From: Chromatiales bacterium
GTDB lineage: Bacteria > Pseudomonadota > Gammaproteobacteria > SZUA-152
Length of the DNA stretch: 61,830 nt
Assembly: GCA_026982555.1 (NCBI GenBank)
Contig: JALSGT010000084.1
Span: 1 to 61,830 of the forward strand
Reading direction: 5' to 3'
The position numbers were made by a program, and so were the translations under genes. Below, one piece after another: positions 34,776 to 45,421 of the stretch; position 1 is the stretch's first letter, and each line of letters opens with the position of its first letter. A model generated the notes under the pieces. The model made no database searches. It was not told where the DNA came from and was given only the letters and a program-made list of their open reading frames with translations.

Positions 34776-35258
34776 ATGGCAATATATCTTGAATATGATG
34801 GAATACCGGGAAATGTAACGGCTGAAGGTTTTGAGAAGTGCATCAAAATCAGCTCAGTGAGTTTTGGTACGTCACGCCCGATTACCATGGAAGCGGGTAA
34901 AATGGCTAACCGTGAAGTCGGCAAGCCCACTGTTTCTGAAGTAAATCTCACGAAAATAGCCGATAATTCTGTTGCTGCACTGTTTAAAGAGTCTGTTTCC
35001 GGTTCGTCAGGCAAAAATGCAGTTCTTAAATTTACTCGCACTGGCAGTGACGGTGTTGAAGAATTTATGGAATATTCGCTGGAAAATTGCCTGGTCAGCA
35101 GCTACCACATTGCTGCCAACGGCGATGCCGAGCCAGAAGAAACGATCACGTTGAGTTTTTCCAAGTGTGAAATCAACTACAAAGATCACGATGCAACCAA
35201 TAAGACGGGTAGTCCGCAACGCGCAGGTTACGATCTGACAAAAGCTGTACCGTTATAA
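34776..35258 (+). CDS. hcp: T6SS tube protein Hcp
   Basis: MAIYLEYDGIPG, NLTK..D, L.N..VSSY, E.ITLSF..CEINY. Confidence 0.9.
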   Translation: MAIYLEYDGIPGNVTAEGFEKCIKISSVSFGTSRPITMEAGKMANREVGKPTVSEVNLTKIADNSVAALFKESVSGSSGKNAVLKFTRTGSDGVEEFMEYSLENCLVSSYHIAANGDAEPEETITLSFSKCEINYKDHDATNKTGSPQRAGYDLTKAVPL

Positions 35259-35396: not shown

Positions 35397-37328
35397 ATGA
35401 GTGATTTTACTCAGGACAGCCGTCTTATCGCTGTTGACACACCTTTGGGGAAGGATGTGCTTTTGCTGGCCTCATTTGATGGCGCTGAATTTGTCTCTTC
35501 TCCATTTGAGTTTCATCTGACCGCGCTGTCTCTCAATCTTGAAATCAAACCGGAAGACCTCGTCGGTAAACCGATTACGGTTAAAATTCAAAATGAACAT
35601 GGCCGGGTTTTTCATGGTCTTGTCAGCAAGTTTGCGTTTGGCGAAATAACCTCCAGTAGTTTCCGCAAGTATCATCTGGTGATGGTGCCATGGCTTCAGT
35701 TCCTTTCTCATACCGAAAATCGTCGTATTTTTCAAAACAAAAACTCAAAGGATATCATCAGCCAGGTATTTGCTGATCTGGGGTTTGGTGATTTTGATTT
35801 CAGGGCAAGTGGTGGTGTGCCAAGGGAGTATTGCGTTCAATATGGTGAAAGCGATCTGGATTTTGTTTCCCGGCTACTGGAAGAGGAAGGCTATGCCTAT
35901 TACTTCACCCATGGGGAAGACAAGCACACGCTGATCATTGTTGACAAAGCGAATGCTTATGATGAATGTACTGAAACGAATTTAACTTGCTCAAAGGGCT
36001 CGACACCGGACTCTGAAATACAGAGCTGGGAACATCATTATGAGTTCAGGAAAGGTGGCTGGATTGTAAATGACTTTAATTTTAAAGAGCCGAAAAAAAG
36101 CCAGGAAGTAGAAACAAAATCAAAAAGCAAATTTGCCAATAACAGCAAATTCAAACATTATGAATACCCTGATTTATATGATGTCGGCTCGGGGGCTGAT
36201 CTGGTTAAGGTCCGTATGGAAGCAGAAGAAGCGCCGATGGATACCATTACCGGCTCCAGCAATTGCAGTACGTTTTATGCCGGTGGTTTTTTTAAGCTGG
36301 ACAAACACGATGCCAAGAGTGAGCAGGGTAGCTATACTTTGCTGCGAGTCGAACATCATGCCTCTGATTCCAGTTATTACACAGGCGAAAAAGGCGAGAC
36401 AGGTTACAGTAATAAATTTGATTGCATTTCATCGGACGTACATTTTCGGCCAGCCCGGGAGCATCCGCGTCCTGTAATGAAGGGGCCGCAGTCTGCAATA
36501 GTCACAGGCCCGGCAGGCGAAGAAATTTATATTGATGAGTTTGGCCGAATCAAGGCCCAGTTTATCTGGGATCGGGAAGGGAAAAATGACGAGAACAGCT
36601 CCTGTTTTCTGCGTGTCATGCAGGCCTGGGCAGGTAATGGCTGGGGTACTTCATTTATTCCTCGTATTGGCCACGAAGTAATTGTCACGTTTCTTGATGG
36701 TGACCCGGACCGGCCGATTGTGACCGGAACTGTTTATAACGGGGTTAACAAACCACCTTATGGCTCAAAAACACAAAGTGGTATCAAAACGCACTCAACC
36801 AAAAGTGGCACCGCAGCAAACTTTAATGAACTGCGCTTTGAAGATAAAAAGGGCTCGGAACAGGTTTATATCCATGCCGAAAAAAACCTGGATACAATGG
36901 TCGAGAACAACGAAACCTTAACCGTTGATAATGACCGTACAAAAACCATCAAAAATGATGAAAATTCAACAATAGAAAATGACCGTAACAAAACGGTCAA
37001 TAACAACCAGACGGAAACCATAAAAAAGAATAAAACCATTGATGTTGGCAAGGACCACAAAGAAACCATTGGGTCAAATATGACGATTATGGTTGATAAG
37101 GATCTGAAAGAATCCGTTAAGGGTAACTATACAGAGAGCGTCACAAAAGATTATGCATTGCAGGCCAAGACAATTACTTTACAGGCAAATGATAAAATTA
37201 CCATCCGAACAGGTGCTGCCCAGATAGTGATGAAAAGTAATGGCGATATCACCATGAGCGGAAAGACGATCAATATCAAAGGCTCCGGTAATGTGGTGAT
37301 TAATGGCAGTAAGGTGATTACCAATTAG
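35397..37328 (+). CDS. vgrG: T6SS spike protein VgrG
   Basis: REYCVQYGESDLDFVSRLLEEEG, GPQSAIVTGPAGEEIY, IPRIGHEVIVTFLDGDPDRP, NELRFEDKKG; about 8-aa gp5-type C-terminal repeats; no effector extension. Confidence 0.93.
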   Translation: MSDFTQDSRLIAVDTPLGKDVLLLASFDGAEFVSSPFEFHLTALSLNLEIKPEDLVGKPITVKIQNEHGRVFHGLVSKFAFGEITSSSFRKYHLVMVPWLQFLSHTENRRIFQNKNSKDIISQVFADLGFGDFDFRASGGVPREYCVQYGESDLDFVSRLLEEEGYAYYFTHGEDKHTLIIVDKANAYDECTETNLTCSKGSTPDSEIQSWEHHYEFRKGGWIVNDFNFKEPKKSQEVETKSKSKFANNSKFKHYEYPDLYDVGSGADLVKVRMEAEEAPMDTITGSSNCSTFYAGGFFKLDKHDAKSEQGSYTLLRVEHHASDSSYYTGEKGETGYSNKFDCISSDVHFRPAREHPRPVMKGPQSAIVTGPAGEEIYIDEFGRIKAQFIWDREGKNDENSSCFLRVMQAWAGNGWGTSFIPRIGHEVIVTFLDGDPDRPIVTGTVYNGVNKPPYGSKTQSGIKTHSTKSGTAANFNELRFEDKKGSEQVYIHAEKNLDTMVENNETLTVDNDRTKTIKNDENSTIENDRNKTVNNNQTETIKKNKTIDVGKDHKETIGSNMTIMVDKDLKESVKGNYTESVTKDYALQAKTITLQANDKITIRTGAAQIVMKSNGDITMSGKTINIKGSGNVVINGSKVITN

Positions 37329-37346: not shown

Positions 37347-37904
37347 GTGAAATATAACGAGCCTGATATAACTCAAGCGCAAGAAGAAACCCTGTCATTG
37401 CCCTCCGGTATAGCGCCTGGTGAGATTGTCATCGGCACTCTGGTGGACACTGACAAACAGGGGCAGCCGCTTGTGGACTTTTCGGAAAACCCGGCCAATA
37501 AGCCATTAAAAGCAATAGCAACGCTTGTCCTTACCCAAAGGCATGTCGGCAGGCAGGTTGCCCTCCTGTTTACAAACGGAAATCTGCAAAACCCGGTGAT
37601 CATGGGTATGATCCACAGCCCTTTGCAAGACATGCTGGAAAATTTTGGGCAATTTCAGACCAAAGATGAACCTGATAATGAGACCCGGAACGATGCAGGG
37701 CAAGAGGGTGATCTGAAAGTAGATGATGTCCTGGTTGATGGTCAGAAAATTATTTTTGAAGCCAAGGATAAAATCGTCCTGAAATGTGGTAAATCAAGCA
37801 TTATCCTGACCAAAGATGGAAAAGTGTCAATACGCGGAAAAAACGTATTGAGCCGCGCAACGGGTACCCATCAAATCAAGGGCAGTGCGTTTCAGGTGAA
37901 CTGA
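37347..37904 (+). CDS. DUF6484-like protein (gp5 OB-fold plus short needle-like tail)
   Basis: VALLF.NG...PVIMG followed by VLKCGKSSIILTKDGKVSIRG; position between vgrG and DUF2169. Confidence 0.65.
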   Translation: MKYNEPDITQAQEETLSLPSGIAPGEIVIGTLVDTDKQGQPLVDFSENPANKPLKAIATLVLTQRHVGRQVALLFTNGNLQNPVIMGMIHSPLQDMLENFGQFQTKDEPDNETRNDAGQEGDLKVDDVLVDGQKIIFEAKDKIVLKCGKSSIILTKDGKVSIRGKNVLSRATGTHQIKGSAFQVN

Positions 37905-37924: not shown

Positions 37925-38917
37925 ATGTTACAACTTCGCAACAGCAGTCCCTTTGCAGCCGGCCTTGCCCTGTTTCCGAATGAAGAGGGTATTGATACAT
38001 TCTACTTGCTGGTTCGGGCCACGTTCAATATTGGCGAACAATGGACTCTGGCCGATGAACAACTTCCCCCCGCAGAGGGTGATGAGTATTGGGGAGACCC
38101 TGAGAAATCCAGTATTAAACAAGTATCGGATTATCATACCGGCAAACCGGGCAGCGATATTATCATGCTCGGTAATGCTTTTGCCCCCGATGGAAAAGAA
38201 GTTCAGCAACTGGACGTCAGCCTGACGGTTGGCCAGATACATAAAACTGTCCGTGTCTTTGGTGATCGTTATTGGCAGAATGGACGTATATCCGCCCCGA
38301 AGCCATTTCATACCATGGCGATGATTTATGAAAATGCTTACGGTGGAACACATCTTGTCGATGACGTCGCCATTGCGACGGAAGAACGAAACCCTGTCGG
38401 CTGTGGTTTTGCAGGGCAGCGCACGGCAGAAGAAATGAATGGTCTGCCTCTGCCTAATCTGGAAGACCCCAGTGACCTGATTACCCGTATTTCCCAACAA
38501 CCTGTTCCCGCCTGTTTTGGCGCAAGCGCTCCGCACTGGCAGCCACGCGCCGCTTATGCCGGTACATATGATGCTGCATGGCAAACAGGCCGGGCACCTT
38601 TCCTGCCGGAAGACTTTGACAAGCGTTTTTGTAATATGGCGCACCCTGATCTGGTGTATGCCGGGTTTCTCAAAGGAGGGGAACCTGTCACCATTACTCA
38701 CATGCATCCACACGGCACCATTAACTTTGAAATACCCCACGTCCGGCTGCATGCAGATGTGACCGTTGCGGGAACTTCTGTGCAGCCCCCGTTTAACCTG
38801 GAAACAGTAATCATAGAGCCGAACCGGTTAAAACTTGGCATGGTCTGGCGTGCCGCAATGCTGTGTGACAAACAGGCACAGCTGATCAGTGACGTGGCAC
38901 TCAAATTGTCAAAATGA
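37925..38917 (+). CDS. DUF2169 T6SS adaptor/chaperone
   Basis: KPGSDIIMLG, KTVRVFGDR, YENAYGG, NPVGCG, RAAYAGTYD..W, P.LPEDFD.RF.N.A, LETVIIEP. Confidence 0.88.
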   Translation: MLQLRNSSPFAAGLALFPNEEGIDTFYLLVRATFNIGEQWTLADEQLPPAEGDEYWGDPEKSSIKQVSDYHTGKPGSDIIMLGNAFAPDGKEVQQLDVSLTVGQIHKTVRVFGDRYWQNGRISAPKPFHTMAMIYENAYGGTHLVDDVAIATEERNPVGCGFAGQRTAEEMNGLPLPNLEDPSDLITRISQQPVPACFGASAPHWQPRAAYAGTYDAAWQTGRAPFLPEDFDKRFCNMAHPDLVYAGFLKGGEPVTITHMHPHGTINFEIPHVRLHADVTVAGTSVQPPFNLETVIIEPNRLKLGMVWRAAMLCDKQAQLISDVALKLSK

Positions 38918-40076
38918 GCCATCTGATGATCACAGACATATTCAATCAGACTCAATCATGACTGCAAATGGACAAAGCAAAAAAATGCCGGATTCAGATA
39001 CATTTCAGCCTCCGACGCGACCTGTTATTGTGCATGATGTCACCATGCTGTCACCACTGGGGGATGATGTTATGCAGGTGGCGGCGGCGGTACGTGCAAA
39101 CATTAGCCGGTTTAACGAAAGTGTTTTTTACAATCAAAAATTATTGCCCCTCAAAATGGCACTGGTGCCCGATGGGATTTTACCCCCTCTTGATGATGAA
39201 CTGCTTAAAAAAGGGGGTATTTCCCCCTGGCAAAAACGTTTATTAAGGCTGGCAACCCGCCCACTGACAACACTGTTTAAGATGCGGGGCAGAGGCGCAT
39301 TACCCCTTTTCCTCGCCTGTCCGGAAACACTGCCTGGGCGTCGTTATCGCATCACCGACCGTTTTCTTTCATTGCTGAAAATACAGACAAAGCAAGCGAT
39401 TGATATGGAGAACAGTTATCTGTTTCCTTTTGGGCGTGCGGCAGGATTGTGTGCGTTGGAAGCTGCCATGCTCCATATTGAAAAACACCCGGGCAGTCAG
39501 GCGATAGTAGGCGGTATTGATAGTTATATTGATCCCTACCTGCTGAGCACTTTGGCACAAAAGAACCGCATCGCGGGACATGGCGTTATGGATGGCTTTA
39601 TCCCGGGAGAGGGAGCCGCTTTTTTATTAATAGGTGCGGCGTCTCAGTTATCTGCTGAAGCCTCAATAGACACTGGATCTCGCTTTATATTATACCCGCC
39701 CGGTATTGCTTCAGAACCGGGGCACCGCTACTCCCCTGAACCGTATCGCGGGGAAGGGCTGGCTAACGCCGTCACCGATGCACTGGATGTTAACCTAAAT
39801 TCAAAAGTTGATACGGTGATGATCAGTTTCAACGGCGAAAACTTTTTTGCGAAAGAGTGGGGTGTGGCGGCAATACGCAATGCCGCTGCATTTACCGCAG
39901 AACCGGCATTTTTACACCCCGCAGATTGTTTTGGTGATGTCGGTGCCGCGTTTGGACCCATGGCCATAGGGGTCAGTATCATGGGAATGCATAAAAAATA
40001 TTTAACATCACCGGCATTGATCTGCTGTTCTTCCGAAATGGAACAGCGTTCAGCCGTTTGTTTAACCGTTATTTAA
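38889..40076 (+). CDS. Thiolase/ketoacyl-synthase-like T6SS accessory protein (PRK06147-like)
   Basis: GGIDSY, FIPGEGAAFLL, NGE.F.AKEW, HPADCFGDVGAA; typical partner of DUF2169. Confidence 0.8.
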   Translation: MTWHSNCQNEPSDDHRHIQSDSIMTANGQSKKMPDSDTFQPPTRPVIVHDVTMLSPLGDDVMQVAAAVRANISRFNESVFYNQKLLPLKMALVPDGILPPLDDELLKKGGISPWQKRLLRLATRPLTTLFKMRGRGALPLFLACPETLPGRRYRITDRFLSLLKIQTKQAIDMENSYLFPFGRAAGLCALEAAMLHIEKHPGSQAIVGGIDSYIDPYLLSTLAQKNRIAGHGVMDGFIPGEGAAFLLIGAASQLSAEASIDTGSRFILYPPGIASEPGHRYSPEPYRGEGLANAVTDALDVNLNSKVDTVMISFNGENFFAKEWGVAAIRNAAAFTAEPAFLHPADCFGDVGAAFGPMAIGVSIMGMHKKYLTSPALICCSSEMEQRSAVCLTVI

Positions 40077-40091
40077 GGAGGTATCCGCGTT

Positions 40092-40472
40092 ATGGCTTGC
40101 AGCGTATTTGTTAATGGAAGAGGGATTGCCCATAAAGGCAGTGGCGGGAAATCAATTGTTTTTCCAGATGTCTGTAAAACACCGGTTGGCCCTTCCGTTG
40201 TGCCGATTCCTTACCCTAATCTGGGCCAGTCGGCGGATACCTCAAAAGGGCCAAAATCCATCACCATCAATGGCCAGATGCCCATGGTCAAAGGGGCAAA
40301 ATACGCAATGAGCAGTGGCGATGAAGCGGGCGTTGCCAAAGGTATTATCAGTGGCAAAATCAAAGGTGAATGTGAATTTCTCATGTACTCCTTTGACGTG
40401 AAATTTGAAGGAAAAAACGTCTGTCGCATGGGTGACCCGTTATGGCACAACAAAAAGAATATTTTAGGGTAG
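40092..40472 (+). CDS. Stand-alone PAAR-like DUF4150 (PIPY) spike-tip protein
   Basis: FPDVCKTP...PIPYPN, SSGDEAG, SFDVKFEGKNV.R.GD; stops after 126 aa with no toxin fusion. Confidence 0.88.
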   Translation: MACSVFVNGRGIAHKGSGGKSIVFPDVCKTPVGPSVVPIPYPNLGQSADTSKGPKSITINGQMPMVKGAKYAMSSGDEAGVAKGIISGKIKGECEFLMYSFDVKFEGKNVCRMGDPLWHNKKNILG

Positions 40473-40514
40473 CGAATACCGTTACGGTGTGGATAACAAC
40501 CACGGAGAAAAACA

Positions 40515-41360
40515 ATGACAGAGATGATTGAACCCGTATCGGTGGCCACCATTGATCACGAAGACCATGAAGAAGAAACCTGTGCATTTTGTACCGCACC
40601 GACCAAACCCACCGATGAAAAAAACACGCTTCAGGATGATTTTGATGAAGACAAACATGAAATTCCGGGCCTGAATGATGATGGTATGGCACTTAAAAAC
40701 AGCGCCGGGCAGCTCGGCAAAAACCTCGCCAAAAAAGGAGCGGCGCAGATCACTGCCGAGGTGAAACTGGCCGGACTTGCCAAAATACTGCCGGTGACCA
40801 GTGCTGCCCATCATGTGATTCCCGGCAATGCAGCGTTAAAGAGAAGTGAAATCATGCAATACCTGCATACCGACGGCATGGCCACGGGCAATATCGGTTA
40901 TAACGTCAACAACGATGAAAATGGTATCTGGCTGGTGGGTAATTATGCCTTGCGTGGCAAAAAAGGGTTGCCCGCCTGGGGGCCTGAAGGTGCTCATTTC
41001 ACTGTCGGTAAACCGGGTGTGCCGGGCACTAAAAAAGACCCTTATGAATATGCCAAAGCAGCGATAGAAGCAACCGGTTACCAGTTCCACGATGGCCATG
41101 ATAAATACAGTATATTTGTGAAAAAAACATTGGATTTGATCGCCAAAAAAATGGAGCTGACGCAGGATGTCTGGTGTATCGAGGCAGCCAATAAGCCGAA
41201 TAAACCTGAAGAGCAGCAACTGTTCATGTTGGTCAACCGGCTCAACACGGTCTCACGACGCATGAAAACCCTGTTGCAAAACCCGGGTAAAAACTGGAAA
41301 AAAAATGTTTTTACCTCCCGTTTCAGTGAAAAATATATCGAAGATGAAATCTATAAATAA
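40515..41360 (+). CDS. AHH-family (HNH/EndoVII fold) nuclease effector, copy 1
   Basis: SAAHHVIPG, GYNVNNDENGIWL, QFHDGHDKY; own GGAGA RBS. Confidence 0.8.
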   Translation: MTEMIEPVSVATIDHEDHEEETCAFCTAPTKPTDEKNTLQDDFDEDKHEIPGLNDDGMALKNSAGQLGKNLAKKGAAQITAEVKLAGLAKILPVTSAAHHVIPGNAALKRSEIMQYLHTDGMATGNIGYNVNNDENGIWLVGNYALRGKKGLPAWGPEGAHFTVGKPGVPGTKKDPYEYAKAAIEATGYQFHDGHDKYSIFVKKTLDLIAKKMELTQDVWCIEAANKPNKPEEQQLFMLVNRLNTVSRRMKTLLQNPGKNWKKNVFTSRFSEKYIEDEIYK

Positions 41361-41376
41361 ATAGAGAGAGGCAAGT

Positions 41377-41979
41377 ATGTTTTATATGCTGGATGATACC
41401 ACCGCAAAAAAGCGCTGGCTGGATATTGATGACTATCTGGATCATTATGGTTTTCGCTCACAATATGGAACAACGTTCAGGTGGTTTAATGGGTCGATAT
41501 TCGTTGACGCCCCCCCTGAACCCTTTGAAATAAAGTTGCGACCGCTTGAGGTTGACCATCCTGATCACGGCCCACTGATTCCATCATACTATGATGACAC
41601 AATTGTTTTGATGCGCGATGATCTGATCGAGGCGATGGTGACCTTTGGTGTGGATAACCTGGACACCTATGCGGTGAACCTCACCGACCCGGATGATGGC
41701 ACGGTTTACACTAACTACAAGGCGGTCAATATCATCGGCGTAGTGGCTGCCGCCGACATGAAAAAATCCACCGCAACGGTGCATAACAACATCCCGCTGG
41801 TGGATGTCTCCTTCGACAAGCTCGTGATCAATGAAGAAAAGGTGCAGGATTTACTGCTCTTTCGTCTGGCAGAAAACCTGATGACCATCCTGATGAACGA
41901 GCACCTGCGCAACTATCTGCTGGAAAAAGGGTTTGATGATATTAAGTATTACCCGCTGGATGAAGTGGCGACACCATAA
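41377..41979 (+). CDS. Imm11/DUF1629-like immunity protein, copy 1
   Basis: Immediately downstream of the toxin; V.LMRDDL.EAM..FGVDN, Y..VNIIG, LFRLAEN. Confidence 0.72.
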   Translation: MFYMLDDTTAKKRWLDIDDYLDHYGFRSQYGTTFRWFNGSIFVDAPPEPFEIKLRPLEVDHPDHGPLIPSYYDDTIVLMRDDLIEAMVTFGVDNLDTYAVNLTDPDDGTVYTNYKAVNIIGVVAAADMKKSTATVHNNIPLVDVSFDKLVINEEKVQDLLLFRLAENLMTILMNEHLRNYLLEKGFDDIKYYPLDEVATP

Positions 41980-42013
41980 CGGTGATGATGATGGTAATCA
42001 CGGAGAACAGACA

Positions 42014-42859
42014 ATGACAGAGATGATTGAACCCGTATCGGTGGCCACCATTGATCACGAAGACCATGAAGAAGAAACCTGTGCATTTTGTACCGCACCG
42101 ACCAAACCAACCGATGAAAAAAACACGCTTCAGGATGATTTTGATGAAGATAAAAATGAAATCCCGGGCCTGAATGATGATGGCATGGCACTTAAAAACA
42201 GCGCCGGGCAGCTCGGCAAAAACCTCGCCGAAAAAGGAGCGGCGCAGATCACTGCCGAGGTGAAACTGGCCGGACTTGCCAAAATACTGCCGGTGACCAG
42301 TGCTGCCCATCATGTGATTCCCGGCAATGCAGCGTTAAAGAGAAGTAAAATCATGAAATACCTGCATACCGACGGCATGGCCACGGGCAATATCGGTTAT
42401 AACGTCAACAACGATGAAAATGGTATCTGGCTGGTGGGTAATTATGCTTTGCGTGGCAAAAAAGGGCTGCCCGCCTGGGGGCCTGAAGGTGCTCATTTTA
42501 CCGTCGGCAAACCCGAAGTGCCCGGCACGGGCAAAGACCCTTATGAATATGCCAAAGCGGCGATAGAATCAACCGGTTGCCAGTTCCACGATGGTCACGG
42601 GAAGTACAGTACATTTGTGGAAAAAACACTGGATTTGATTGCCAAAAAAATGGGGCTGACGCAGGATGTCTGGTGTATCGAGGCAGCCAATAAACCGGCG
42701 AAACCTGAAGAGCAGCAACTGTTCATGCTGGTCAACCGGCTCAACACAGTCTCTCGACGCATGAAAACTATGTTGCAAAACCCGGGTAAAAACTGGAAAA
42801 AGAATGTTTTTACCTCCCGTTTCAGTGAAAAATATATCGAAGATGAAATCTATAAATAA
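42014..42859 (+). CDS. AHH nuclease effector, copy 2
   Basis: Same 281-aa length as copy 1, intact AHH motifs, about 15 substitutions; 1499-bp offset from copy 1. Confidence 0.8.
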   Translation: MTEMIEPVSVATIDHEDHEEETCAFCTAPTKPTDEKNTLQDDFDEDKNEIPGLNDDGMALKNSAGQLGKNLAEKGAAQITAEVKLAGLAKILPVTSAAHHVIPGNAALKRSKIMKYLHTDGMATGNIGYNVNNDENGIWLVGNYALRGKKGLPAWGPEGAHFTVGKPEVPGTGKDPYEYAKAAIESTGCQFHDGHGKYSTFVEKTLDLIAKKMGLTQDVWCIEAANKPAKPEEQQLFMLVNRLNTVSRRMKTMLQNPGKNWKKNVFTSRFSEKYIEDEIYK

Positions 42860-42873
42860 ATAGAGAGGCAAGT

Positions 42874-43476
42874 ATGTTTTATATGTTAGATGATACCAGC
42901 GCAAAAAAACGCTGGCTGGATATCGATGATTATATAGATCGTTATGACTTTCGCTCACCGTATGACGATAAATTCACCTGGTTTAATGGGTCGATATTCG
43001 TTGACGCCCCCCCTGAACCCTTTGAAATAAAACTGCTGCCCTATGTTGCCGAAGACCCTGATCACGGCCCATTGATTCCATCATATTATGATCACAAAAT
43101 TGTCTTGATGCGCGATGACCTGGTCGAGGCGATGGAGGCTTTTGGTGTGGATAACCTGGACACCTATGCGGTGAACCTCACCGACCCGGATGATGGCACG
43201 GTTTACACTAACTACAAGGCGGTCAATATCATCGGCGTAGTGGCTGCCGCCGACATGAAAAAATCCACCGCAACAGTGCATAACAACATCCCGCTGGTGG
43301 ATGTCTCCTTCGACAAGCTGGTGATCAATGAAGAAAAGGTGCAGGATTTGCTGCTCTTTCGTCTGGCAGAAAACCTGATGACCATCCTGATGAACGAGCA
43401 CCTGCGCAACTATCTGCTGGAAAAAGGGTTTGATGATATTAAGTATTACCCGCTGGATGAAGTGGCGACACCATGA
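42874..43476 (+). CDS. Imm11/DUF1629-like immunity protein, copy 2
   Basis: 200 aa; identical to copy 1 after residue ~90, divergent before it. Confidence 0.72.
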   Translation: MFYMLDDTSAKKRWLDIDDYIDRYDFRSPYDDKFTWFNGSIFVDAPPEPFEIKLLPYVAEDPDHGPLIPSYYDHKIVLMRDDLVEAMEAFGVDNLDTYAVNLTDPDDGTVYTNYKAVNIIGVVAAADMKKSTATVHNNIPLVDVSFDKLVINEEKVQDLLLFRLAENLMTILMNEHLRNYLLEKGFDDIKYYPLDEVATP

Positions 43477-43582
43477 CTTTTAATCCCGGCAGGTTTACGT
43501 TCCCGCTGCTTGCCGTGTTGTTGGGGGAGTGGATTTAGCCGTAAAGATCGAAAAGGAAATCTATAAATAACGAGAGGCAAGT

Positions 43583-44149
43583 ATGTTTTATATGCTGGAT
43601 GATACCACCGCAAAAAAACGCTGGCTGGATATTAGTAATTATAATGACTGTTATGGTTTTCGCTCACAATATGGAACCAGGTTCAGGTGGTTTAATGGGT
43701 CGATATTCGTTGATGCCCCCCCTGAACCCTTTGAAATAAAACTGCTGCCCTATGTTGCCGAAGACCCTGATCACGGCCCATTGATTCCATCATATTATGA
43801 TCACAAAATTGTCTTGATGCGCGATGACCTGATCGAGGCGATGGTGACCTTTGGTGTGGATAACCTGGACACCTATGCGGTGAACCTTACCGACCCGGAT
43901 GATGGCACGGTTTACACTAACTACAAGGCGGTCAATATCATCGGCGTAGTGGCTGCCGCCGACATGAAAAAATCCACCGCAACAGTGCATAACAACATCC
44001 CGCTGGTGGATGTCTCCTTCGACAAGCTGGTGATCAATGAAGAGAAGGTGCAGGATTTGCTGCTGTTTCGTCTGGCGGAAAACCTGATGACCATCCTGAT
44101 GAATGAGCACCTGCGAAACTACCTGCTGGATGAAGTGGCGACGCCGTAG
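43583..44149 (+). CDS. Orphan Imm11-like immunity protein, copy 3 (mosaic, 12-aa deletion)
   Basis: 188 aa; lacks EKGFDDIKYYPL; preceded only by a 24-nt toxin 3'-end scar (43547-43570). Confidence 0.7.
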   Translation: MFYMLDDTTAKKRWLDISNYNDCYGFRSQYGTRFRWFNGSIFVDAPPEPFEIKLLPYVAEDPDHGPLIPSYYDHKIVLMRDDLIEAMVTFGVDNLDTYAVNLTDPDDGTVYTNYKAVNIIGVVAAADMKKSTATVHNNIPLVDVSFDKLVINEEKVQDLLLFRLAENLMTILMNEHLRNYLLDEVATP

Positions 44150-44185
44150 TTTTTGATGATGCCTGGGTTTGGTGTTTTGAATAAA

Positions 44186-45421
44186 ATGAATACACAACAT
44201 TTTTTTAAAGATATTCATGAGCAATATGTTGATGATGCCGCTTTTCTGTGGATATTACGCTCAGTTGCGACAGAAAAACCTCACTATAAGGCTAGTGATA
44301 TACAGGGGCTGGAACAACGCATCGAGGCACCTCTCGATGGGCTTATGACCTCGTTGGAGTCTGGCTGGGCGGCTTGTGAGTCAGCCCTGGAGATGCAAGA
44401 GCCGGGTGAGGTGTTTACCGCGATGACCATCGCCATGCGCAGCCATGAAGCCCGTAAAATCCAGCAGGCTGTTGAAGCTGGATTGGCCAATGATCTCGCC
44501 ACGCCCGGTTTGATCTCTGCCATGGGCTGGCTGCCCGCTGAAATCGCAACCCCCTGGATGGAACGGTTTCTCAATGGCAAAGAGATGAATCACAAGTATT
44601 TAGGCTTGGCGACCTGTAGTGTCCGCCGCCAGGACCCGGGCGAAATACTGACTAATATTTTACGACGAGACGACTGTCTGCAACATGAAAAGCTCTATGC
44701 ACGCGCTTTGCGTTTGATTGGAGAATTACGCCGTCAGGATTGTATGCCAGCAATCAATACCTCCCTGCATGACGACAATGAAAATATCCGCTTCTGGGCA
44801 AACTGGTCTGCGGTGTTATTAGGCCAGCGAGCCAGTGTTAAAAATCTCGAATCCCTTGTTTTTAAAGCCGGCCCCCATCAAGACCAGGCTATCCAGCTGG
44901 CTTTCCGGGTTTTGCCCGTCGAGCAGGCCCGGGAATGGATCTCCAGATTATCAGAAGATGGAAGCCAGATCCGGGCGGTAATCAAGGCCACGGGCGTACT
45001 CGGCGATCCTCACGCTATTAACTGGCTGATCAGCAAAATGCAAAACCCAATATTAGCAAAACTCGCTGGTGAGTCATTTTCATTAATCACGGGCATCGAT
45101 TTAGAAAGACACCATTTGCAAATTGATGTGCCTGACAATACGTCTCCCGTCGAAAATGTTGACGATGACAATATCGAGCTGGATCAGGATGAAAATTTGC
45201 CATTCCCGGATGTCACGAAAGTGGAAGCCATTTGGCGTAATCATGGACAGAACTTTATTATTGGCCGTCGCTATTTTATGGGCCGCCCTGTTACATCAGA
45301 AATTCTTAAAGAAAAATTGGCCGACGGTACACAACGTCAACGTCATGCAGCAGCAATGGAGCTGGCATTGAGTGAAAATGATGTGCAGCTTCCCAACACG
45401 CGCGCACGGATATTGGCCTGA
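44186..45421 (+). CDS. TIGR02270-family HEAT-repeat T6SS accessory protein
   Basis: DDAAFLW..R...P.Y...L..RIEA.LDGL, GDPHAINWLI, AGESFSLITG, LPFPD. Confidence 0.82.
   Translation: MNTQHFFKDIHEQYVDDAAFLWILRSVATEKPHYKASDIQGLEQRIEAPLDGLMTSLESGWAACESALEMQEPGEVFTAMTIAMRSHEARKIQQAVEAGLANDLATPGLISAMGWLPAEIATPWMERFLNGKEMNHKYLGLATCSVRRQDPGEILTNILRRDDCLQHEKLYARALRLIGELRRQDCMPAINTSLHDDNENIRFWANWSAVLLGQRASVKNLESLVFKAGPHQDQAIQLAFRVLPVEQAREWISRLSEDGSQIRAVIKATGVLGDPHAINWLISKMQNPILAKLAGESFSLITGIDLERHHLQIDVPDNTSPVENVDDDNIELDQDENLPFPDVTKVEAIWRNHGQNFIIGRRYFMGRPVTSEILKEKLADGTQRQRHAAAMELALSENDVQLPNTRARILA

Follow-up and report, generated by a model that had tools for sequence, protein, structure and literature searches.

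An AHH/Imm11 toxin-immunity array of three cassettes in a Chromatiales type VI secretion cluster, with a probable origin in tandem duplication and recombination

We analysed a stretch of 61,830 nucleotides (contig JALSGT010000084.1 of assembly GCA_026982555.1, Chromatiales bacterium; hereafter the window), which is one contig of a metagenome-assembled genome (MAG) whose 162 contigs total 2.43 Mb, with 73% completeness and 4.1% contamination. The window contains a real effector-immunity array of three cassettes, made of AHH-family nuclease toxin genes and Imm11 immunity genes, at the end of an auxiliary type VI secretion system (T6SS) cluster with genes for Hcp, VgrG, DUF6484, DUF2169, PRK06147-like and PAAR-like proteins. 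The cassettes are a full toxin-immunity pair, a second full pair, and a toxin scar followed by an orphan immunity gene. The pattern of differences among them is that of ordinary array growth by duplication and recombination, and it is not evidence of a new specificity under positive selection. Taken as a whole, an array derived by duplication, reworked by gene conversion and recombination, and made of pairs that neutralise each other's toxins is the account that we consider reasonably likely. The members of the array are as follows.

40515-41360, plus strand: T1, AHH-family nuclease toxin, 281 amino acids (PF14412, 33.5 bits against a cut-off of 22.3)
41377-41979, plus strand: I1, Imm11 immunity protein, 200 amino acids (PF07791, 27.0 bits against a cut-off of 22.1)
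41980-42013, plus strand: junction of the duplication, with about 19 nt of unique sequence (CGGTGATGATGATGGTAAT) and then the ribosome-binding block CACGGAGAA (comparison of junction sequences)
42014-42859, plus strand: T2, second full-length AHH nuclease toxin, 281 amino acids, 95% identical to T1 (PF14412, 35.7 bits)
42874-43476, plus strand: I2, Imm11 immunity protein, 200 amino acids, 90% identical to I1 (PF07791, 29.9 bits)
43547-43570, plus strand: scar of a third toxin, 24 nt, the last 7 codons and the stop (IEKEIYK, stop; blastn-short to the toxin 3' ends)
43583-44149, plus strand: I3, orphan Imm11 gene, 188 amino acids (PF07791, 23.5 bits against a cut-off of 22.1)

The direct repeat spans 40512-43476 and was found by a repeat search and our own alignment; Tandem Repeats Finder gave no match for a 1499-bp repeat because its longest period was 500. 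The toxin starts (40515 and 42014) are 1499 bp apart and the immunity gene starts (41377 and 42874) 1497 bp apart, the two spacings differing because of a 2-bp indel in the spacer between toxin and immunity gene. A preliminary description made from the same DNA had reported a 1499-bp tandem toxin-immunity duplication, which these positions bear out for the toxins, and we have little doubt that the duplicated cassette is real as described there. The array has three cassettes and not two because a third Imm11 gene with a toxin 3' scar is found at 43583-44149.

Both toxin frames are open; T2 starts at an ATG of its own (42014), and the CACGGAGAA block in front of it is also found in front of T1. 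The deposited call for the second toxin (P0040, 307 amino acids) begins inside I1 (41933-42013 region); this is probably an over-extended start, because both homology and the ribosome-binding site place the true start at 42014. An alignment of 36 homologues has 40 invariant columns, all of which are kept in T1 and T2, and a whole-genome search confirmed the PF14412 match of both proteins. With open frames, a ribosome-binding site of its own for each and all invariant residues in place, both toxins are intact, as had been proposed. The invariant columns include A98-H99-H100, N126, N132, N136-G137 and Q190-F191-H192-D193-x-H195; from knowledge of the family, we take the A-H-H motif and the downstream Asn and His residues to be the catalytic residues of a beta-beta-alpha-metal finger. 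The N-terminal 95 residues of the toxin are acidic (pI 4.5), as are the immunity proteins (pI 4.3-4.5); the nuclease part of the toxin (pI 9.3) and the PAAR-like protein (pI 9.4) are basic. Within the toxin N-terminus (40515-40800, residues 1-95), E6, H18, C23, F25 and N37 are invariant in the 36 homologues and C26 nearly so; these residues may form a metal-binding or tip-docking motif.

T1 and T2 differ at 14 residues (H48N, K73E, E112K, Q115K, G168E, K173G, A186S, Y189C, D196G, I200T, K203E, E214G, N229A and L253M), 12 of which lie within residues 112-253 (binomial p=0.007). The clustering of toxin differences near the catalytic motif that had been noted earlier thus stands, with a count of 14 in place of about 15; the alignment also reproduces the three peptide blocks quoted as divergent, and many of the changes do alter charge (8 of 14 in the toxins, and 12 of 20 in the immunity proteins). 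In the predicted secondary structure, the helix that follows the AHH strand carries residues 112 and 115, and one face of a helix starting right after QFHDGH carries 196, 200 and 203 (i, i+4, i+7); 186 and 189 come just before that motif. This placement near the catalytic motif in the predicted structure suggests that some of the variable residues may belong to the interface with the immunity protein. The AlphaFold2 model of the toxin had a pLDDT of 81 and found no significant match in the Protein Data Bank (PDB) with Foldseek, and a PDB sequence search with the toxin gave no match.

All 20 differences between I1 and I2 are at positions 9-89, and residues 90-200 are identical (clustering p=9e-8), in agreement with the earlier observation that the differences are confined to the first 90 or so residues. 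I1, I2 and I3 are 90-93% identical to one another. The AlphaFold2 model of I1 (pLDDT 92.4) had a single significant PDB match with Foldseek, the experimentally validated Imm11 immunity protein MXAN_0049 of Myxococcus xanthus (6a4c; E=7.4e-11, TM 0.67/0.63, 211 columns), and a PDB sequence search with the immunity protein returned only a weak match to the same protein. The three immunity genes have three different stop codons (TAA, TGA and TAG), and the sequence after the stop differs from gene to gene.

Relatives place the array in context. A sister strain, from an independent metagenome assembly (JGI Ga0316209_1000370, 84 kb; L014), has flanks 95.6-96.8% identical to those of the window with gene order unchanged, and its array reads toxin (275 amino acids), immunity gene, C-terminal toxin fragment, immunity gene and then a gene for a HEAT-repeat protein; the fragment has 88 codons, with homology from about codon 193 and an open reading frame of 69 amino acids. 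Another species of the same genus (G007) has a single pair, in the order PRK06147-like, PAAR-like, toxin (81% identical), one immunity gene and HEAT, and a 2.6-kb metagenome contig has a single-pair form like it. In G007 as in the sister strain, the HEAT-repeat gene comes after the final immunity gene, as it does in the window. T1 and T2 have in common an 18-nt (6-amino-acid) insertion in the VGKPGVPG region that is absent from 34 homologues (33 in alignment A3, the sister strain among them, and the G007 toxin); this private insertion argues that the two toxins had a common origin in this lineage or exchanged that stretch. The scar of the third toxin is 92% identical to the toxin 3' ends of the window and 96% to the sister copies, and is therefore of the sister-strain allele type. 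I3 has a 36-bp (12-amino-acid) in-frame deletion between two GCTGGA repeats, by which EKGFDDIKYYPL is missing.

Synonymous divergence (dS) and its ratio to nonsynonymous divergence (dN/dS) were estimated by the Nei-Gojobori method for T1/T2 and I1/I2.

Toxin codons 1-145: dS 0.055, dN/dS 0.22
Toxin codons 146-265: dS 0.33, dN/dS 0.16
Immunity codons 1-92: dS 0.54, dN/dS 0.23
Immunity codons 93-200: dS 0.04, dN = 0

We refer to the toxin nuclease (3') half together with the immunity N-terminal half as the core, and to the toxin 5' part and tail together with the immunity 3' half as the arms. Silent divergence was 6-13 times higher in the core than in the arms, with 42 of about 142 silent sites differing in the core and 8 of about 171 in the arms (Fisher p=1.7e-9). 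Such a gap between adjacent segments excludes a single duplication followed by uniform divergence. Across segments dN/dS was 0.14-0.23 and none had an excess of amino-acid change; positive selection at the level of segments was rejected on these values, and all parts of the cassette are under purifying selection.

The comparison with the sister strain and G007 separates the histories of the segments. Over the toxin tail and spacer (41304-41376), the two repeat units of the window (U1/U2) have 100% identity, as do those of the sister strain (S1/S2), but identity between strains is 85.5%. In the immunity N-terminal half, I1 and I2 are 83.3% identical, I2 and the sister protein Ia 88.8%, and I1 and Ia 75.0%, the last pair being no closer than I1 and the protein of the other species (75.4%). 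The comparison of variable sites took in all three copies of the window, both of the sister strain and that of G007. Across the five copies from the window and the sister strain, four short modules are combined differently, namely positions 9-36 (two alleles), 55-61 (RPLEVDH or LPYVAED), 74-75 (DT or HK) and 84-89 (IEAMVT, VEAMEA or IEAMEA), and the pairwise homoplasy index (PHI) test on these copies gave p<=0.0005; of 1596 informative site pairs, 764 were incompatible. These copies are mosaics produced by recombination, with alleles common to both strains; I3 itself is a mosaic of I1-like and I2-like segments with private changes in addition (SNYNDC). The block pattern is a mosaic of ages, with arms kept near-identical by gene conversion within the array and a core of older alleles reshuffled between strains.

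These results bear on the mechanism that the preliminary description had proposed, in which toxin-immunity specificity was diverging in place after the duplication, and for which dN/dS in windows had been suggested as a check. That mechanism is not sustained: the check found no amino-acid excess in any segment, the core exceeds the arms in silent change, and the immunity copies carry cross-strain alleles. The description was correct and the mechanism was over-interpreted. As a separate matter, the microhomology ACC[A/G]T[T/A]ACGGTG at the duplication junction was considered as the crossover point and discarded as too short and imperfect.

We surveyed 81 loci holding a toxin homologue. An Imm11 homologue lies directly downstream of the AHH toxin in 71 of the 71 related loci with a candidate open reading frame, as it does in T1-I1 and T2-I2. 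Two full-length tandem toxins were found in 2 of the 81 loci, the window and L083, and a full toxin with a C-terminal fragment in another 2 (L014 and L024), while L089 has two fragments. With the 8-codon scar in the window, these counts uphold the statement that downstream cassettes in such loci are usually start-less; a complete second toxin in AHH/Imm11 loci is uncommon but not unique. The second such locus (L083:4727-8471; OZ246012.1, a gammaproteobacterial MAG chromosome) has the order toxin, immunity, toxin, immunity, with toxins 65% and immunity proteins 73% identical. At L024 (7799-8803 and 12637-13725; OZ252214.1, a Cellvibrionaceae MAG) a toxin C-terminal fragment, Imm11 and the next gene are repeated about 4.8 kb downstream, the copies having 98% protein identity with unrelated genes between them, which makes this a segmental and not a tandem duplication. 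A further contig (L097:1-895; Ga0316202_10083368) has another allele of the toxin tail and Imm11, with a further combination of N-terminal modules and a different downstream gene in place of the HEAT protein. Neither T1 nor T2 was found as an exact protein in other assemblies, and an exact scan of metagenome contigs for a 28-mer across the I1-to-T2 junction was also negative; when metagenome contigs were scanned for close relatives, the only matches were the sister contig and two short ones, and two full toxins were present in none of them.

The genes around the array, listed below, place it in its T6SS context.

34776-35258, plus strand: Hcp, T6SS tube protein (the syntenic gene in the sister contig L014 is PF05638 T6SS_HCP)
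35397-37328, plus strand: VgrG spike protein (TIGR03361 VI_Rhs_Vgr, E=4e-179, 596 bits against a cut-off of 186)
37347-37904, plus strand: DUF6484 protein, spike-associated (PF20093, E=5e-20)
37925-38917, plus strand: DUF2169 T6SS adaptor (PF09937, E=6e-95)
38889-40076, plus strand: PRK06147-like (ketoacyl-synthase-like) putative adaptor (NF004798 PRK06147, E=1e-48, under the curated cut-off)
40092-40472, plus strand: PAAR-like (DUF4150 / Tox-PAAR-like) spike tip protein (PF13665, E=3e-43)
44153-45421, plus strand: TIGR02270-family HEAT-repeat protein, end of the cluster (TIGR02270, E=1e-102, 344 bits against a cut-off of 207)

The 364-amino-acid call for the sister gene makes a start near 38982 probable for the PRK06147-like gene. 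The genes for Hcp, VgrG, DUF2169, PRK06147-like and PAAR-like proteins are directly upstream of T1 on the same strand, and the succession DUF2169, PRK06147, PAAR, effector is a described T6SS architecture (PMC7714669). DUF2169 is a known class of T6SS adaptor, and PRK06147 is a proposed adaptor class that is often followed by PAAR and AHH, AHH being the second most frequent toxin family beside it (PMC7714669).

Family knowledge suggests how such a cluster would work. The cargo toxin would dock through its acidic N-terminal 95 or so residues, near-identical in T1 and T2, on the basic PAAR-like/VgrG tip with the help of the adaptors; its basic C-terminal AHH (HNH/EndoVII) nuclease would cut the DNA of the target cell, and the acidic Imm11 protein encoded just downstream would bind and neutralise the toxin in the producer. 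From the comparison with the congener and the sister strain, the array would have been born by tandem duplication of a single toxin-immunity pair, after which copies would lose the toxin from the 5' end and leave orphan immunity genes, so that three stages would stand next to each other in the window (a full pair, another full pair, and a scar with orphan). Repeated gene conversion between array members would homogenise the arms, and recombination with the alleles of other strains would take place in the core. By analogy, T1/T2 and I1/I2 probably still cross-neutralise, cross-protection being likelier here, at 90% immunity and 95% toxin identity, because M. xanthus pairs cross-protect at 46% immunity identity. 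The second cassette would then add dose, redundancy or breadth of immunity and would not be an orthogonal new weapon. Single-residue switches of specificity are known in other toxin-immunity systems, however, which tempers this expectation.

Several points weigh against this account. The PHI test on the toxin genes alone (four sequences) was not significant (p=0.31). A core that stays diverged while its flanks are homogenised could reflect selection for two specificities, to which a dN/dS taken over a whole segment is blind at individual sites. The look-ups and scans described above gave no independent assembly with the I1-to-T2 junction or a full-length second toxin. No T6SS sheath gene TssC/VipB (PF05943) turned up in the MAG, which is 73% complete; TssC is present in 5 of the 13 genomes of the genus, including G007, which has the closest version of the locus. 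Nuclease activity, secretion and neutralisation are all predicted here from family membership.

Perhaps the cassettes are instead orthogonal or becoming so, with the 14 and 20 differences marking the binding interface and selection keeping the cores distinct; we regard this as rather unlikely. The position of the toxin differences beside the catalytic motif (112 and 115; 196, 200 and 203), the charge changes in both proteins and the persistence of a diverged core between homogenised flanks would all be expected, but the variable segments have dN/dS of 0.16-0.23 and abundant silent change. The differences also fall on the most variable columns of the family (entropy 2.39 versus 1.49 in the toxin, p<1e-4, and 3.0 versus 2.22 in the immunity protein), which fits specificity sites and unconstrained surface sites equally. 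Mutual information between toxin and immunity positions over 61 independent cognate pairs was 0.045, against 0.001±0.007 for entropy-matched positions; three immunity columns that are gap-rich and hypervariable (31, 57 and 58) account for the signal, which is confounded by phylogeny, and for these reasons mutual information (61-66 cognate pairs) is a hint only. Y189 occurs with the immunity module GFRSxYGT and C189 with DFRSPYDD in 4 of 4 complete pairs, although four pairs are too few to establish co-variation. M. xanthus Imm1 relieved the toxicity of Toxin2, and an 86% identical orthologue complemented an immunity deletion (PMC12077131), where the window has 90% and 95% identity. A particular form of this idea, that the window is a natural intermediate toward orthogonal pairs, with conversion keeping the loading domain and the immunity scaffold half identical and selection blocking conversion over about 700 bp (the toxin active-site face and the immunity N-terminal subdomain), we consider unlikely. 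If it were true, two specificities without cross-protection, separated by 14 and 20 differences and with both toxins on one spike, would amount to a specificity code for AHH/Imm11.

It is also conceivable that the repeat is an assembly artefact, in which two strain variants of the pair, or of a pair with an orphan, were strung in tandem or mis-phased, and no chromosome has a full second toxin. The contig belongs to a MAG with 4.1% contamination, related samples contain close strains, and the I3 scar has the allele type of the sister strain. The longest identical stretches between copies are 134 nt (U1/U2) and 155 nt (U2/U3), lengths that approach or exceed k-mer sizes in common use, and a MEGAHIT assembly of the sister strain (L015, ENA ERZ27251196 k141_239415) ends 39 bp after the toxin gene, as expected at a repeat that breaks assembly; the junction 28-mer was, as said, absent from the other metagenome contigs scanned. 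Against this, the unique 19 nt between I1 and T2 are unlike the PAAR-to-T1 and I2-to-I3 spacers, and because of this stretch, reads spanning an immunity 3' end and a toxin 5' end must exist. The three stop codons with their different downstream sequences, private differences of T2 that are less than 120 nt apart along its 5' part, and the insertion that T1 and T2 have in common and that is found in no other sequence likewise speak against misassembly, and at this site the sister strain, independently, also carries a tandem array. An artefact therefore seems to us quite improbable.

Among T6SS and kin-discrimination toxins, AHH/Imm11 pairs are some of the commonest, and the origin of their specificities and of orphan arrays is an active question. 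The locus, the sister strain and the congener form a plausible series from a single pair through a full tandem duplicate and a truncated toxin with orphan to a scar with orphan. Because every component and process is already known, the value of the locus is illustrative and practical and not conceptual; with only 14 and 20 residue differences, it offers a compact natural test set for Imm11 specificity.

Adjacent full-length paralogous T6SS effector-immunity pairs are reportedly also found in Serratia marcescens (Ssp1-Rap1a and Ssp2-Rap2a), where both effectors are said to be secreted; judging from its genes, the window likewise has two complete, potentially expressed effectors. Ssp1 and Ssp2 are said to be peptidoglycan endopeptidases with periplasmic immunity proteins, to be far more diverged paralogues, and to have immunity proteins each cognate to its own effector. 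In the nuclease colicins E2, E7, E8 and E9, silent and replacement changes reportedly cluster in the immunity-binding part and the immunity gene between near-identical flanks; recombination and diversifying selection are both said to have been proposed, with a replacement excess reported for some pairs. The colicins are plasmid-borne, released, and compared between plasmids, whereas the window has tandem chromosomal copies without a replacement excess.

Among the closest characterised systems are the T6SS AHH/Imm11 pairs of M. xanthus, MXAN_0050/MXAN_0049 and three homologous pairs (PMC12077131, PMC12077181; structure 6a4c). DNase activity and toxicity were shown for the M. xanthus AHH homologues, and the 86% identical orthologue mentioned above was one of MXAN_0049 that complemented its deletion (PMC12077131); Imm1 was able to bind Toxin2 and lessen its toxicity, the similarity being 46% for the immunity proteins and 53% for the toxins (PMC12077131; commentary in PMC12077181). 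Like the window, these pairs combine PF14412 and PF07791, the immunity gene coming directly after the toxin gene and a single-domain PAAR-type gene standing on its own upstream. The N-terminal segment of the toxin, which is variable or acidic, is implicated in secretion, a basic nuclease goes with an acidic immunity protein, and extra imm11 genes follow some of the loci. By this analogy the delivery logic of the window appears to be that of the characterised PAAR-dependent pairs. I1 and MXAN_0049 have a similar fold at only about 16% sequence identity, and the window, unlike M. xanthus, has a DUF4150 PAAR-like tip with DUF2169 and PRK06147 adaptors. The M. xanthus pairs are dispersed, with 14-53% similarity, whereas those of the window are in direct tandem with 90-95% identity.

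Rhs C-terminal displacement arrays, like the arrays of Vibrio cholerae, are orphan immunity arrays that form by effector displacement. In the auxiliary clusters of Vibrio cholerae (Kirchberger et al. 2017, PMC5361080), as in the window, immunity genes accumulate at the 3' end of the T6SS cluster and frequent homologous recombination produces mosaic genes. The V. cholerae orphans keep a short toxin 3' remnant (PMC5361080), just as 8 codons remain before I3 and 88 codons in the sister strain. Duplication was rejected as the source of the V. cholerae arrays because members did not cluster within genomes, and array members there are of different types (PMC5361080), whereas those of the window belong to one subfamily and are 90-93% identical. 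The displacement model calls for array members of foreign origin, and the window does not show this; the picture is mixed, since some segments carry cross-strain alleles. The within-genome clustering of parts of the cassettes, the private insertion and the complete second toxin with its ribosome-binding site argue for duplication in place with gene conversion and not for displacement by foreign modules. This suggests that AHH/Imm11 arrays can grow by in-place duplication with concerted evolution, the route that was rejected for the V. cholerae arrays.

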